Shown here piece after piece: positions 7,825 through 14,502 of a stretch of 45,131 nucleotides of DNA. The notes under the pieces were generated by a model that did no database searches, was not told the origin of the DNA, and was given only the letters and a program-made list of their open reading frames with translations. A program made the position numbers and the translations under genes. The stretch is from a virus (taxonomy: Duplodnaviria; Caudoviricetes). The stretch spans positions 1 to 45,131 of the IMG/VR virus record IMGVR_UViG_3300048858_000066. One strand, written 5' to 3'. Position 1 is the stretch's first letter, and each line of letters opens with the position of its first letter.

Positions 7825-9423
7825 TCAAGAGGAACTGCAGATACTGCTTGCAGGTATGAACAAGGGCGCGAAGCTCAGGCCAGACACGACAAGGCCTTCG
7901 ACGAGAAGGCCTGGCGCGCAGTGGATCGCCGGCAGACGCAGGGAGAACCCCACTGCAGTCGTTCCCTTTAGCCGCAGCGCGGTCAGCACGTCTGGCCGCT
8001 CAACGTTGGGAATCACGCTGCCCACGAAATGCTTGTCCGCGAAAAGTAGGACAACCAGTTCCGAGTTCCGCCCGCTACGGTCGAGCGCCCAGCCGTCGAT
8101 CTGAACGCCCGAGCCATCGGCGGGAAGTGCACCGAACTGATCCAAGAAGCCTTGCAGCTCAGAGCTGCGAGTCAGCCCGGCAGCTTCGGCCAAGGCGTCG
8201 ACTGGCAGGGCCACGTCTTTCGAAGTGGAGCCGAGCCTCGCGCCTAATGCCGTAGGCTCTCGTAGGACGGCGCGCTCATACCGTTCCTGAACGTCAGAAT
8301 ATATGGCACCTCCCAGGAAAAGCCCGAGGAAGACGCAGACTACGGATGCTGCAACCCAAGGTGCGGCATTGTCGCAGGCCTGCTTGAGTCGGGCGTAAAG
8401 CCACAAATCAACCTTGCCGAGGAGAACAGAGCCAAAAAGGGAAGCTCCTATCACCGCAGACCAAGCCGACAGGCCGGAAATATTCTCGGGAAGCCGTGGA
8501 AGCAGGGCTAAAATGATTGGAACGTGGACAAGATAAAGGGCAAAGCTCCAGTCCCCCATTCGCACGAGAGTCGTCGATTCTTGGCGCAAAGAACGGCCGC
8601 TCTCCGCAGCGGCCACGGCGACGAGCAGCGCACATCCTCCGGCCATCGTCCATTGCTCGACGCTTCCAAGCGCACCGCTGAGGAGGATCAGCCCAGCTGA
8701 TGCCACGAGAGCACCTGGGCCTGGGCGGAAGCGCTGCACAATGAAGGGAACCAATAGGCCTAGAATGAAGCCTATGCATTTCTCGGAAGTCAGCAAGTAC
8801 GAGAGAGATGGCAATAGCCCAGAGGCGCTGTAATACTTCCATTCCGGCGCCAAAATCTTGGTCATAATGACAACCAGAAGCCATCCCATAGCAATAGCCG
8901 GCAGCCAGCGCCGCAACCCCAGAACTATAACCAGAAACACTGCCACATAGAACGAGATCTCAAACGTTAAAGTCCATTCTATAGCAAGCATGTATTGCCG
9001 GCCATCGCCTGGGATCAGACCGAATGCCCAGGGGTCAAAAGGGAAGTACGTCCCCCAGAGGCCGTATGCCAGCAGCACGGCGCAGGTCATAACCCAGTAG
9101 ATAGGGTAGATCCGGATGATGCGATGTAGAAGAAACCGGAATGGCTGCGTGCGCTGAGAGAGCTCCGCCATCAAATATCCGGAAATCACGAAGAATGATG
9201 TGACCCCGAACATCCCGAAATATCCGTTAAAGACCGCGAAGAGGGCGCCTTCGCCACGGATTTCCTTCACATAGTGCGACGCATGAAAGAGGAGCACGGC
9301 TACCGATGCCGCCGCACGAATGTACTGGATTTCAGAGATACGCCGCACGCCCACCGCGAGCGCTTTTGTGGAATCTGTGAATTGCATTTCGAGCTTGGTC
9401 TTCGTGAATAATGAACGCTTCAC
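7825..9423 (-). CDS. Acyltransferase family 3 (O-acetyltransferase) with C-terminal soluble domain; moron
   Basis: IQYIRAAASVAVLLFH, FFVISGYLM, RIIRIYP, WTLTFEISFY, GDWSFALYLVH; many TM segments; opposite strand and visibly lower GC; start uncertain. Confidence 0.9.
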   Translation of the reverse strand: MKRSLFTKTKLEMQFTDSTKALAVGVRRISEIQYIRAAASVAVLLFHASHYVKEIRGEGALFAVFNGYFGMFGVTSFFVISGYLMAELSQRTQPFRFLLHRIIRIYPIYWVMTCAVLLAYGLWGTYFPFDPWAFGLIPGDGRQYMLAIEWTLTFEISFYVAVFLVIVLGLRRWLPAIAMGWLLVVIMTKILAPEWKYYSASGLLPSLSYLLTSEKCIGFILGLLVPFIVQRFRPGPGALVASAGLILLSGALGSVEQWTMAGGCALLVAVAAAESGRSLRQESTTLVRMGDWSFALYLVHVPIILALLPRLPENISGLSAWSAVIGASLFGSVLLGKVDLWLYARLKQACDNAAPWVAASVVCVFLGLFLGGAIYSDVQERYERAVLREPTALGARLGSTSKDVALPVDALAEAAGLTRSSELQGFLDQFGALPADGSGVQIDGWALDRSGRNSELVVLLFADKHFVGSVIPNVERPDVLTALRLKGTTAVGFSLRLPAIHCAPGLLVEGLVVSGLSFAPLFIPASSICSSS

Positions 9424-9546
9424 GATACCACAGATCGCAGTCGTTACGCCCTAGGTGACGGCCGACGCGGTAGAGGCAAGCGATAACAAGCCATCAAACG
9501 ACCCTGTCCGACTAAGCACCTAGGATTTAATGTTTTCTGTTCAGGT

Positions 9547-9712
9547 GTAACCATCCTCACATGGTTACAACCATTCAACCATTCAACCTTGTAACTTTGT
9601 AACCAAATCCGCATACTTAAGGTGATCGGCCTGCCAACGCCAGCCTAGCCAAGCTGCACCGTTGCACGAACCATTCAACCATGGTTACAACCAACGCACC
9701 ATGTAACCAATT
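9547..9712. repeat. Centromere/operator-like AACCAT repeat arrays upstream of parA
   Basis: About 8-bp periodic AACCAT units in two clusters (9547-9606, 9669-9712), each containing ATGGTTACAACCA. Confidence 0.8.
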
Positions 9713-9718
9713 GGAGCG

Positions 9719-10369
9719 ATGGTGCAGACAATCGTTGTGGCAAGCCAGAAGGGTGGGGCGGGCAAGACGACGCTTACCAGCCATCTGGCCGTTGAAGCCG
9801 AGCGCCAGGGCGTCTCGCCCGTCGCGGTCATAGACACTGATCCACAGGCAGGCCTCTCCGGTTGGTTCCGGGTGAGGCAGCCAGAGACACCCGCCCTGGT
9901 CCAGGTCCTTCCAGAGGGTCTCAAGGCCACTCTGGACAAGCTGGCCGAAGGTGGCGTGCCCTTGTGCATCATCGACACCCCGCCGGCCATCACCGAGAGC
10001 ATCGCCAGCACAGTGGCTCTGGCCGACCTGGTGCTGATTCCTGCCCGCCCTTCCCCCAACGACCTGCGCGCCGTCGGCGCCACAGTCGACATCGTGGAGG
10101 AAGCTGGTAGGCCGATGGTGTTCGTGGTGAATCAGGCTGTGGCCCGGTCCAAGATCAAGACCGAGACCATCAAGGCTCTGAGCCAGCACGGCCCACTGGC
10201 ACCGGTGGAGATTCACCACCGCATCGACTTTGCCACCTCGATGACCGATGGGCGCACGGCCGGAGAACTGGACCTGAAGTCTGCCAGCGCCGTCGAGATC
10301 ACTGAACTCTGGACCTACATTGCTGACCGGCTTGCCCGGAGGAAACGCTATGGCATCGCCTCCCGCTAA
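9719..10369 (+). CDS. parA: ParA Walker-type partition ATPase (type Ib, no N-terminal HTH)
   Basis: SQKGGAGKTT, IDTDPQ, IIDTPP, ADLVLIPARPSPNDL. Confidence 0.95.
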   Translation: MVQTIVVASQKGGAGKTTLTSHLAVEAERQGVSPVAVIDTDPQAGLSGWFRVRQPETPALVQVLPEGLKATLDKLAEGGVPLCIIDTPPAITESIASTVALADLVLIPARPSPNDLRAVGATVDIVEEAGRPMVFVVNQAVARSKIKTETIKALSQHGPLAPVEIHHRIDFATSMTDGRTAGELDLKSASAVEITELWTYIADRLARRKRYGIASR

Positions 10370-10601
10370 AATTGACGCTTCCCTGCTGGTCCGGAAGACC
10401 GATCTTCCAGCCACTGTAGCGCCGCCCAAACCCGAAGCGCCGGTGACCCCTTCGGGCGCCCCAGTGCGCGAAGGCCTCACCATCCGCATTCTGGCTTCAG
10501 ACAGTGAGCGGCTTCGGACCCTGGCCTTCAAGACACGCCAGAAGAAGCAGGCCCTACTGGATGAAGCGATCCGCCAGTACCTCGACAAGATGGGCGTCTG
10601 A
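10350..10601 (+). CDS. Small centromere-binding partner of ParA (ParG-like ribbon-helix-helix)
   Basis: Disordered N-terminus then GLTIRI...ERLRTLAFKTRQKKQALLDEAIRQYL; overlaps parA; GGAGG RBS. Confidence 0.8.
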   Translation: MASPPAKIDASLLVRKTDLPATVAPPKPEAPVTPSGAPVREGLTIRILASDSERLRTLAFKTRQKKQALLDEAIRQYLDKMGV

Positions 10602-10680
10602 ACCAATGCACCATGGTTGGTTGTAACCAACCATGTAACCACGCAACCATGCAACCATACATGGTTGTACGGTTGTAACT
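10601..10680. repeat. Centromere-like AACCA(T) array downstream of the par operon
   Basis: Multiple AACCA/TGGTT units including palindrome ATGGTTGGTT-GT-AACCAACCAT (10613-10634). Confidence 0.8.
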
Positions 10681-11661: not shown

Positions 11662-11862
11662 ATGGGCAAAACAGTCAGCAGCCGCGAGGTCATCAAGGCC
11701 ATCGAGGCAGACGGGTGGTACGAGGTGGGACAGGACGGCAGCCACAAGCAATTCCGCCACCCCACCAAAAAGGGCCGCACCACGGTCCCCCACCCGAAAA
11801 AAGAACTGGCGATCGGCACGCTGAAAAGCATCGAACGCCAGTCGGGTGTGAAGCTCCGGTGA
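11662..11862 (+). CDS. hicA: HicA mRNA interferase toxin
   Basis: SREVIKAIEADGWYEV...GSHKQFRHPTKKGRTTVPHP..L.IGTLKSI. Confidence 0.96.
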   Translation: MGKTVSSREVIKAIEADGWYEVGQDGSHKQFRHPTKKGRTTVPHPKKELAIGTLKSIERQSGVKLR

Positions 11863-11917
11863 AAACCGGGGCTTCCGCCTCATTCGCTGAAGCGCCCAGG
11901 CCCGAACATGAGAGGGT

Positions 11918-12328
11918 ATGACAATGGCTGTGCGGTATTATCCCGCCATCGTGGAGCAGGCTGGCGGCAACTTCTCCGCCTTCTTTCCCGACTTCGACGG
12001 CTGCGTCTCGGCCGGCGATACCGTGGAAGAGACGGCCGCCAATGCCGAGGCGGCGCTGGCCTTCCACATCCGTGGCATGATTGAGGATGGCGAAACCATC
12101 CCCATGCCGACGCCGCTGGAGCAACTGGCGAAGGACCCGGAGGTGGAGGAGTTCGCCCGCATCCTGGTGCGCGCGGAGCTGCCCGGCAAAGCGGTGCGGC
12201 TCAACATCACCATGGAGGAGGGTCTGCTCTCCGCCGTGGACGCTGCGGCCAAGAGCCAGGGCAAGAACCGCTCTGCCTTTCTGGCCGATGCCGTGCGTGA
12301 GGCGCTGCGTGCGGAGCGCGAGGCGTAG
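11918..12328 (+). CDS. hicB: HicB antitoxin with C-terminal RHH
   Basis: YPAIVE...FPDFDGCVSAGDTVEE...AALAFHI...VRLNITM...NRSAFLA. Confidence 0.95.
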   Translation: MTMAVRYYPAIVEQAGGNFSAFFPDFDGCVSAGDTVEETAANAEAALAFHIRGMIEDGETIPMPTPLEQLAKDPEVEEFARILVRAELPGKAVRLNITMEEGLLSAVDAAAKSQGKNRSAFLADAVREALRAEREA

Positions 12329-12376: not shown

Positions 12377-12391
12377 GTTCTTGTTGTGTTC
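12377..12391 (+). promoter_or_regulatory. Alphaproteobacterial LexA (SOS) box
   Basis: GTTC-TTGTTGT-GTTC, exact GTTC-N7-GTTC, upstream of orf-umuD-umuC. Confidence 0.85.
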
Positions 12392-12461: not shown

Positions 12462-12812
12462 ATGAACAAGAAGTCCCGGCCGTCCGCCCCCGCCCCGCGC
12501 CGCGCTCCTGACCCCCGCAAGGCGGCGCTGAGCCGCGTGGCGGAGCTGGTCGGCCGGGGACACGACGCCGGACGGCTCCAGCGTGAGACCGAGGCGATGA
12601 TCAGCGCGCTCCGCGCCGACATGGCGCCCGAGGATCTGCGCGAGGTGCTGGATGAGGTGCGCGAGGAACTGGCCACCGGAGTCGAGGCGGTCGAGGAGCA
12701 GGCCAGCGAGATCGAGGCCGAGGACAAGGCCGGTCAGCGCCAGGCGCAGCGTCTGGTGAGCGCGCTGGCGGCGGCGCGAGACACCTTCGGGCGGGCCGCC
12801 CTGTCGCTTTGA
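12462..12812 (+). CDS. SOS-regulated hypothetical helical protein
   Basis: 116 aa, GAGG RBS, first gene after the LexA box. Confidence 0.75.
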   Translation: MNKKSRPSAPAPRRAPDPRKAALSRVAELVGRGHDAGRLQRETEAMISALRADMAPEDLREVLDEVREELATGVEAVEEQASEIEAEDKAGQRQAQRLVSALAAARDTFGRAALSL

Positions 12813-12833
12813 TCCTCCCGCCCCAGACCGGCC

Positions 12834-13241
12834 ATGGCCCCGCCCCGCTATCCCGACCAGCCGGAGGAGCCCGCCTACAGCGGCGGCGAAACCACCGGCT
12901 TTGTGTCGCCGGCCGCCGACCATCTGGAAGGCCCCATCGACCTTTCTGATGTGCTGGATCTGCGCAAGCCCAACCGCTACCCGGTGCGGGTGCTGGGCGA
13001 GGCGCTGACCCGGCGCGGCATCCTGCCGGGCGATGTCCTGATTGTCGATGCCGCGGCCGAGCCACGCACGGGGGCGGTGGCCATCGTCATGCTGGGCGGC
13101 GAGGTGCTGCTGGCCCAGCTGGCCTGGAAGAACGGGCAATGGTGGCTGCGCTCCGGCCGCGCCGAGCAGCCGCCGGTGATGCTGGCGGAAGAGGCCGAGA
13201 TCTGGGCCATGGTCGCGGCCCTGGTGCGCGAGCGGGTGTGA
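12834..13241 (+). CDS. umuD: UmuD/LexA S24-like protein, apparently catalytically inactive
   Basis: GFVSPAADHLEGPIDL, VRVLGEAL..GILPGDVLIVD, VLLAQL, EIWAMV; directly upstream of umuC. Confidence 0.85.
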   Translation: MAPPRYPDQPEEPAYSGGETTGFVSPAADHLEGPIDLSDVLDLRKPNRYPVRVLGEALTRRGILPGDVLIVDAAAEPRTGAVAIVMLGGEVLLAQLAWKNGQWWLRSGRAEQPPVMLAEEAEIWAMVAALVRERV

Positions 13242-13242
13242 G

Positions 13243-14502
13243 ATGCCTGCCGTCTATGGCCTAATCGACGGCAACAGCTTCTACTGTTCCGCCGAGCGGG
13301 CCTTCGCGCCGGCGTTGCGCGACAAGCCGGTGGTGGTGCTGTCGAACAATGACGGCTGCGCCATCGCCCGCACGCCGGAGGCCAAAGCCCTCGGTATCAA
13401 GATGGGCGATCCCTGGCATCTGGTGCGCGGCCGCCGCGAGTTGCGTGGCGTCGAGTGGCTGAGCAGCAACTACAGCCTGTATGGCGATATGAGCCGCCGG
13501 GTGTATCAGGTGCTGGCCGAGCGGGTGCCGCGCGTCGAGCCCTACAGTATCGATGAGATGTTCCTGGATCTCGACATCCCGGTCGAGCTGCACGCCTTCT
13601 GCGCAGCGCTGCGGGCGGAGGTGCGGCAGGTGGCGAAGATCCCCACCTGCGTCGGCTGGGGCCCGACGAAGACCATCGCGAAGTTGGCCAATGGCATCGC
13701 CAAGGACCACGCTGAGCTGGGCGGGCTGTGCGATTTGCGCGAGTCGGAGGAGCGGGCAGGGTGGTACGCCCGCTTGCCGGTGGATGAGGTCTGGGGCATC
13801 GGCCGCCGCACCACGGAGAAGCTGCGCGCCGGCGGCATCGAGACCATCGCCGACTTCCTGGCGCTCGATGCCCGGGCTGTGCGCCAGCATCTGACGGTGG
13901 TGGGCGCCCGGGTGCAGGCGGAGCTGCGCGGCATCTCCTGCCTGCCGCTGCAGATGCTGGCGGCGACCCGCAAGGGGCTGGCCTGCACCCGGGCCTTCTC
14001 GCGGCCGGTGACCGCTTGGCCAGACATGCGGGAAGCCGTGGCAGCCTATGCCGCACGGGCGGCCGAGAAGCTGCGCGCGGAACGGTTGGAGGCCTGCCAC
14101 CTCTCAGTGTTCCTGCATACCAACCCGCACGAGCAGGCGCCGCAGTATTCCGCCAGCCGCGCCTGCCGCATCGAGCCGACCAGCGACACGCGTGACCTGA
14201 TTACGGAGGCGGTGCGGCTGCTGGAGCCGCTGTGGCGCGACGGCTTCCGCTACGCCAAGTGCGGCGTCATCCTCAATGACCTGGTGCCCGCCGGGGAGCA
14301 GGCGAGGCTCTTCGCGAGACGCAGTCCGCAAGCCTCGGCAAAGACCATGGCGGTGCTGGACGCCATCAATAGGAGCCACGGGCGCGGCACGCTGCAGGTG
14401 GCCAGCACCGGCATCGCCCGCAGTTGGGCCACCAAGGCGCAGAGACTGTCACCACGCTACACCACGAGGCTGGAGGATATTTTGGCGGTGCGCGCGTTCT
14501 AA
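13243..14502 (+). CDS. umuC: Y-family DNA polymerase V catalytic subunit
   Basis: LIDGNSFYCSAE, VVVLSNNDGC, SSNYSLYGDMS, YSIDEMF, SPRYTT. Confidence 0.96.
   Translation: MPAVYGLIDGNSFYCSAERAFAPALRDKPVVVLSNNDGCAIARTPEAKALGIKMGDPWHLVRGRRELRGVEWLSSNYSLYGDMSRRVYQVLAERVPRVEPYSIDEMFLDLDIPVELHAFCAALRAEVRQVAKIPTCVGWGPTKTIAKLANGIAKDHAELGGLCDLRESEERAGWYARLPVDEVWGIGRRTTEKLRAGGIETIADFLALDARAVRQHLTVVGARVQAELRGISCLPLQMLAATRKGLACTRAFSRPVTAWPDMREAVAAYAARAAEKLRAERLEACHLSVFLHTNPHEQAPQYSASRACRIEPTSDTRDLITEAVRLLEPLWRDGFRYAKCGVILNDLVPAGEQARLFARRSPQASAKTMAVLDAINRSHGRGTLQVASTGIARSWATKAQRLSPRYTTRLEDILAVRAF

Follow-up and report, generated by a model that had tools for sequence, protein, structure and literature searches.

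In the textbook view, cleavage of UmuD acts as a timer that holds mutagenesis back until the late SOS response. How a mutasome might dispense with this timer is the question raised by a phage locus in which a UmuD homologue lacking both catalytic residues and the usual cut site is encoded directly ahead of an intact UmuC. The window (the whole stretch of DNA analysed, 45,131 nucleotides) is a 45-kb phage record with terminase, portal, capsid, ParB, resolvase and HicAB genes. The nearest relatives of its umuD, at 79–80% identity, are found in Pseudoroseomonas and Roseomonas, which points to Acetobacteraceae as the probable host family. The gene and the positions that define the problem are the following.

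12834..13241, plus strand: umuD, encoding a protease-dead UmuD (135 residues, complete open reading frame; Peptidase_S24, E-value 2.7e-12)
12897..12920, plus strand: GFVSPAAD, the segment with which processed UmuD' begins (its G, F, S, P, A and D occur in 42/42 sequences)
13002..13004, plus strand: codon of Ala57, at the position of catalytic Ser60 in the alignment to E. coli UmuD (GEAL)
13113..13115, plus strand: codon of Ala94, at the position of catalytic Lys97 in the same alignment (LLAQL)

Residues 13–120 of the window protein align without gaps to residues 16–123 of E. coli UmuD (8gmt_B), and in this alignment Ser60, Lys97 and the C24–G25 site of E. coli correspond to Ala57, Ala94 and T21–G22 (12894–12899). 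The absence of both catalytic residues and of the canonical site, the central claim of the preliminary description, is confirmed in this way, as are the parts it had read as intact: the GFxSPAAD arm (GFVSPAAD), the GDxLIVD core (GDVLIVD) and, in UmuC, DGNSFY and YSIDE. A displaced dyad, which would have changed the picture, was sought by sequence among 61 distinct rows of the clade described below, where no column from residue 40 on holds Ser/Thr/Cys or Lys/His in at least 70% of the rows. The AlphaFold model of the protein has the UmuD' fold, with Z-scores of 14.6–14.8 against the known structures 8gmt, 1umu and 1ay9; the match to 8gmt (Z 14.6, rmsd 1.9 Å, 96 residues aligned) is one of overall fold, without residue-level superposition, and residues 18–31 of this monomer model have a pLDDT <50. 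The Pfam S24 match lies above its cut-off, while the scores against the NCBIfam models PRK10276 (71.2 bits, cut-off 110) and NF051876, the HumD model (35.5 bits, cut-off 120), lie below theirs. An assembly error is ruled out because the gene is also covered by a 526-nt contig obtained in a second study (X2), which spans 12765–13290 with 2 differences.

The loss is shared by a whole group of homologues. In an alignment of the 120 homologues listed out of 161 matches, position 94 is Ala in 71, Cys in 30, Gly in 12 and Ser in 7, and position 57 is Ala in 113, Gly in 3, Ser in 2, Val in 1 and Cys in 1; both Ser57-bearing proteins among those listed carry Ala at position 94. Lys at position 94 is found in none of these 120 and in none of the 61 distinct locus rows, so that the loss, common to proteins down to ~45–50% identity, is not the recent and private decay that intact dyads in all homologues would have implied. 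The ratio dN/dS, estimated on a sample of 42 distinct whole umuD–umuC pairs, has a median of 0.36 for umuD (159 of 861 pairwise comparisons, those with dS 0.05–1.2; none >1) and of 0.30 for umuC; 13 hand-picked close pairs give 0.00–0.16, and the window compared with locus L001 gives 0.33. The clade thus behaves under the proposed check for purifying selection as a conserved lineage that is likely functional. In a quick UmuD tree (177 of 228 rows, near-copies dropped, 117 columns, frameshifted fragments included), dyad-less proteins form an all-dead branch of 62 rows with an SH-aLRT of only 84, and the 12 dyad changes, 3 of them forced by starred branches, leave the number of independent losses unfixed. 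Since the clade loci are partly redundant and related, counts over the clade overstate independence.

Clade loci occur on chromosomes, plasmids and viral contigs, mostly of Acetobacteraceae sensu lato, with a few in bins labelled otherwise. Among 401 genomes sampled across the class, a clade-level score was reached in the centre genome only, and canonical Ser and Lys are present at each of the 18 next-best loci that were looked at. Carriers include the cultured, non-pathogenic industrial genera Gluconobacter, Acetobacter, Komagataeibacter and Acidiphilium, and for this reason the question is directly testable and bears on mutation rates of production strains. A DnaE search in five carriers found extra DnaE-like copies in three.

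The partner polymerase follows at once.

13243..14502, plus strand: umuC (419 residues; Pfam IMS, IMS_HHH, IMS_C and DUF4113; QxxLF clamp-type motif at residues 353–357; conserved C-terminal tail)

Its start lies one base past the umuD stop, and the protein scores 417 bits against PRK03609 (cut-off 431). Residues D9, N11, F13, Y14, I103, D104, E105 and Q353 are present in 42/42 partner UmuCs, and umuC adjoins umuD in 55 of the 62 clade loci; in the other seven, umuC lies ~1.9 kb further on in one, one is at a contig edge, and five show no umuC in the sequence covered. The partner UmuCs, 46 in number, make up one side of a branch with a support of 100 (FastTree), and their sister group consists of two UmuCs whose UmuD is canonical. 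The distances of UmuD and UmuC covary (Mantel 0.59, 0/999 permutations). This branching is compatible with a single loss in an ancestral umuDC, which may have been followed by joint inheritance. Positions specific to the UmuCs of the clade were discarded as evidence since they are confounded with ancestry. The notion of a conserved accessory subunit of Pol V that would not cleave itself and is paired with an intact UmuC therefore holds at the level of sequence: the dyad is lost, umuC is adjacent in most loci and the polymerase motifs are retained in the partner UmuCs compared. A single metagenomic protein of 546 residues (P0271) joins a clade UmuD and a UmuC in one frame; its UmuD end looks frameshifted and the fusion may be an artefact, and in its predicted fold residues 1–41 of the UmuD part have a pLDDT <50, with no alignment depth there.

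What distinguishes the clade beyond the missing dyad is its N-terminal arm.

12876..12896, plus strand: arm motif Y15-x-G17-x-x-T20-T21, directly before G22, near-invariant in 61 rows

In these rows Tyr is found in 58, Gly in 60 and each Thr in 61; window Y15 aligns with F18 of E. coli UmuD. Both Thr are present in 42/42 of the whole pairs and are encoded by three or four synonymous codons, which indicates that they are held at the protein level. Measured to the nearest ATG, the arm has a median of 11 and a minimum of 9 residues, versus a median of 31 in 28 canonical loci, and shortening stops directly ahead of the Tyr, never passing the motif. Cleavable arms, as seen in 83 canonical rows, carry Pro at −9 (68), Leu at −8 (59), Val at −3 (63) and Ala or Cys at −1 (81); the clade is largely devoid of these residues, with Pro at −9 in 6/61, Arg, Asn or Glu at P3 and Thr at −1 in 61/61, a residue found at P1 in 1/83 active rows. 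This fixed short arm sets the clade apart from other dyad-less UmuDs, and Y-x-G-x-x-T-T is its distinctive element, the candidate roles of which are taken up below. That translation might begin internally and yield a HumD-like product was considered and rejected: a possible start no more than 6 codons from the Gly exists in 1/63 sequences, and the arm has at least 9 residues in 62/62 rows with an ATG.

Upstream of umuD, two further features complete the operon.

12377..12391, plus strand: GTTC-N7-GTTC, candidate alphaproteobacterial LexA-type operator (sequence match, putative binding)
12462..12812, plus strand: orf12462, a 116-residue protein between the operator and umuD, without Pfam or PHROG family

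The window contains 2 matches to GTTC-N7-GTTC against 0.6 expected, which is not significant alone (10/100 shuffles), but the box lies within 700 bases upstream in 57/61 clade loci and in 0/61 control stretches of equal length. Because this pattern is the alphaproteobacterial LexA motif (PMC8565304, in the text available) and its complement precedes most of the host lexA genes inspected, transcriptional SOS control is probably retained. A promoter scan did not find a sigma-70-like site. For orf12462, one NCBIfam match falls far below its cut-off and no usable Atlas match was obtained; homologues occur in 2/62 clade loci and at the plasmid locus L192. The gene is found in a few Roseomonas-type loci. 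The protein had been suggested as a partner to be assayed with umuDC, but with this distribution it is rejected as a required one and is a lineage-limited passenger, no conserved part of the system. On a Lichenicola plasmid (L193:4184-6664; L013), the LexA box is separated from the dead umuD–umuC pair by an imuA-like gene; an imuA-like match is near only 1/62 other clade loci.

The explanation we favour, with a probability of about 60%, is that the protein would be an uncut, born-active UmuD'-like subunit under LexA control, RecA still being loaded onto UmuC. The activity is what is proposed; the loss of dyad and site, the conservation of the clade, the shortened arm, the operon layout, the operator motif and the co-inheritance with UmuC are observed. 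DNA damage would lift LexA repression, and the dead UmuD would dimerise. Its arm, lacking the Pro-Leu and the P3 Val by which cleavable arms stay fastened in the cleft, would be loose and would let GFVSPA enter the cleft between palm and little finger of UmuC. The retained Y-x-G-x-x-T-T would serve for binding, as an extension that contacts UmuC or the partner subunit, and not as a cleavage signal, and RecA would still be bound via the tail of UmuC. A UmuD without Ser-Lys dyad and cut site would in this manner work uncut beside the adjoining UmuC, and LexA at the promoter together with the loading of RecA onto UmuC, instead of proteolysis, would control mutagenic bypass.

Engineered and modelled precedents point in both directions: an extension is tolerable, yet costly in E. 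coli. According to the consulted part of PMC5342242, E. coli UmuD18, in which 7 residues are left before Gly25, stays uncleaved, is structurally UmuD'-like and supports low but detectable mutagenesis, while the uncleavable UmuD8 S60A, which keeps Phe18, shows greatly reduced mutagenesis. In a model of Pol V, the N-terminal segment of UmuD' is predicted to insert by the active site of UmuC (PMC11791011, consulted in part). Against a born-active subunit, the E. coli variants show that extra residues before Gly25 cost activity, the aromatic residue kept at the Phe18 position (58/61) could still hold the arm down in the way seen for the uncut protein, and the strict Thr-Thr before Gly also suits a recognition site for another enzyme. 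Of the three routes of activation that the preliminary description had left side by side, namely cleavage-independent activation, trans-cleavage and another protease, the first appears likeliest from the sequences, whereas trans-cleavage by a canonical UmuD, which accompanies the clade protein in 1/15 carriers, is disfavoured.

The tethering just mentioned leads to the alternative of a reversible switch that is never cut, in which Tyr would hold the arm in the Phe18 pocket of the partner (off) and the RecA filament would release it, so that RecA* would time activation. In the available text of PMC9926225, the pocket for RecA F203 is built by UmuD Y52, residue 54, F94 and the arm residue F18. 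The clade has kept Tyr52 (60/61), Val54 (58/61) and Tyr at position 18 (58/61) while catalysis was dropped, and the trimming of arms up to the Tyr and never past it speaks in the same sense. However, other positions of RecA contact are eroded (D91 lost, F94 mostly Val or Leu, E93 acidic in 37/61), and since the armless P1 HumD also retains Tyr52, keeping the pocket does not require an arm. We consider such a switch unlikely. A broader version, doubtful as it stands, would have Pol V of Acetobacteraceae replace irreversible cleavage with a purpose-built uncut arm, Y-x-G-x-x-T-T acting as a reversible latch or extended UmuC-binding element and RecA toggling the complex without proteolysis; separate lineages whose arms end in Thr-Thr would have reached a similar solution.

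A different route back to ordinary UmuD' would be removal of the arm in trans, by host LexA or another host protease, or by an unusual self-processing at Thr-Thr; we regard it as quite unlikely. The old site reads T-T-G-F without exception, Thr-Thr recurs in other dead groups (3/3 and 14/14 rows), and LexA-like matches (any match) exist in 284 of 301 genomes of the family, those inspected being LexA. LexA, however, is not known to accept Thr at the cut position, and in active UmuD rows Thr at P1 is the single exception noted above and the P3 Val is gone from the clade. In E. coli, an active partner can cleave UmuD S60A in trans (PMC5342242, in the part consulted), but such partners are rarely at hand: among the 301 genomes, canonical UmuD is found in 11 (10 over the curated cut-off and one more with a partial copy) and a clade match in 15 (12 with a whole copy), with an overlap of one genome, whose clade copy is frameshifted. 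As near-total overlap would be needed, obligate cleavage by a normal UmuD is disfavoured; canonical UmuD is absent from 14/15 carrier genomes, of which assemblies may be incomplete, and 0/5 named carriers, one of them among the 301, have a match over the cut-off. Within the phage window, a search for another UmuD- or LexA-type peptidase returned 1 of 799 frames, UmuD itself. An SRAP peptidase was rejected as the protease, being near only 7/62 clade loci and absent from the window.

The protein could also remain fixed in its uncut form, stabilising UmuC as a brake or checkpoint subunit and allowing little or mostly accurate bypass. K97A and S60A are indeed used in the laboratory to trap UmuD uncut (8gmt carries K97A), and, in the part of PMC5342242 consulted, mutagenesis is poor with UmuD8 S60A and weak with UmuD18, which does aid survival. 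Yet the catalytic residues of the partner UmuCs are all retained, under purifying selection, most carriers have no other UmuD, and the arm characteristic of uncut UmuD is for the most part missing, all of which makes a brake quite unlikely. Decay of umuD has next to no probability: some copies are frameshifted or partial, and 3/15 carrier genomes have only such a copy, but the depth to which the loss is shared, the invariant motifs and, above all, dN/dS values well under 1 already largely refute it.

If the favoured explanation of an uncut, active subunit is right, a lineage that dropped cleavage while keeping an active-looking UmuC and a new arm would make the timer optional, and the clade would separate the role of RecA in cleavage from its role in activating the polymerase.

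Compared with E. coli UmuD/UmuD' (peptidase family S24; PDB 8gmt, 1umu, 1ay9), the clade shares the fold, GFxSPAAD, the operon with umuC, LexA-type control, an aromatic residue at position 18 and Tyr52; it differs by Ala at the positions of Ser60 and Lys97, by its Thr-Gly site and by an arm of ~11 residues with Y-x-G-x-x-T-T in place of P-L...V-x-A/C. As a family, UmuD is recognised by the S24/UmuD' fold and an operon with a catalytically intact umuC under a LexA box, which the clade has, and by the Ser-Lys dyad, an Ala/Cys-Gly site with hydrophobic P3 and long arm, and at least 110 bits, which it lacks. The clade thus falls outside UmuD (PRK10276) on dyad, site and score, yet to judge from its sequences it likely acts like UmuD'.

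The HumD protein of phage P1 is a published cleavage-free UmuD' (PMC7092418, in the part consulted; the note in the P1 record agrees), so that an 'undescribed mode of mutasome regulation', as first suggested, is too strong as a general claim. Like the clade protein, HumD needs no self-cleavage and is carried by a temperate phage, and a LexA site is annotated upstream of humD in P1 and of phiKO2 gp23. The clade protein is nevertheless not a HumD because HumD starts with Met-Gly without an arm, keeps Ser and Lys and sits on a separate branch (support 99), in line with the low HumD score of the window protein. N15 gp26 and phiKO2 gp23 (NF051876) have Thr and Lys at the dyad positions, and none of the three has a umuC annotated within 1.5 kb. 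The engineered E. coli UmuD18 and UmuD 3A are likewise uncleaved, loose-armed and UmuD'-like (PMC5342242, in part), but they are laboratory variants with an intact dyad, UmuD18 being weakly mutagenic, whereas the clade occurs in nature, is inherited together with a UmuC branch of its own and has new arm residues fixed. The small subunits YqjX/YolD of the Gram-positive YqjW/UvrX mutasomes have been modelled with an N-terminal arm that is longer and reaches into the polymerase (PMC12926913, in the part consulted); they are predicted monomers and, according to the available portion of PMC6511836, not detectably homologous to UmuD, unlike the clade protein, a true UmuD homologue. For the combination of a lost dyad with a short arm kept under selection, no published description was found in open-access PMC and bioRxiv, and the supplements of PMC6511836 and PMC12926913 may list members.

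Further dyad-less groups exist: a Chitinophagaceae pair and two sets of viral contigs, with a separate UmuC branch for each; dyad-less UmuDs adjoining an intact umuC were seen at L097-L099, L102 and L100-L127 (viral contigs) and at L064 and L066. In the two viral dead groups the arms end in Thr-Thr-Gly-Phe without the Tyr-x-Gly part, and the proteins of one group have only ~90–105 residues. Proteins of ~220–300 residues with two UmuD-like domains in tandem were also encountered (P0141, P0145, P0156, P0159, P0161, P0165, P0173, P0182, P0184 and others). Their first domain carries an arm and a site, with the catalytic Lys in 4/16 mapped, and their second is usually armless, with the Lys in 16/17; by sequence they resemble a dimer in a single chain, one half acting as substrate and the other as enzyme.

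Elsewhere in the window, positions 209–883 form an immunity region with a cro-like gene on the minus strand and a gene for an HTH repressor (likely ATG at 530, 117 residues). This repressor is without an S24 peptidase domain and is therefore probably not RecA-cleavable either. Given such a non-cleavable repressor, an SOS-induced antirepressor is a possible role for orf12462, the first gene behind the LexA box. The second LexA-type match (552–566) falls inside the first codons of the repressor gene, and GGTAC repeats at ~445–495 and ~890–975 may be operators. A stretch of lower GC content (7825–10654) contains an acyltransferase-3 gene, possibly for surface modification, and an unknown frame of 345 residues, and the HicAB toxin–antitoxin genes (11662–12328) lie just upstream of the operon.
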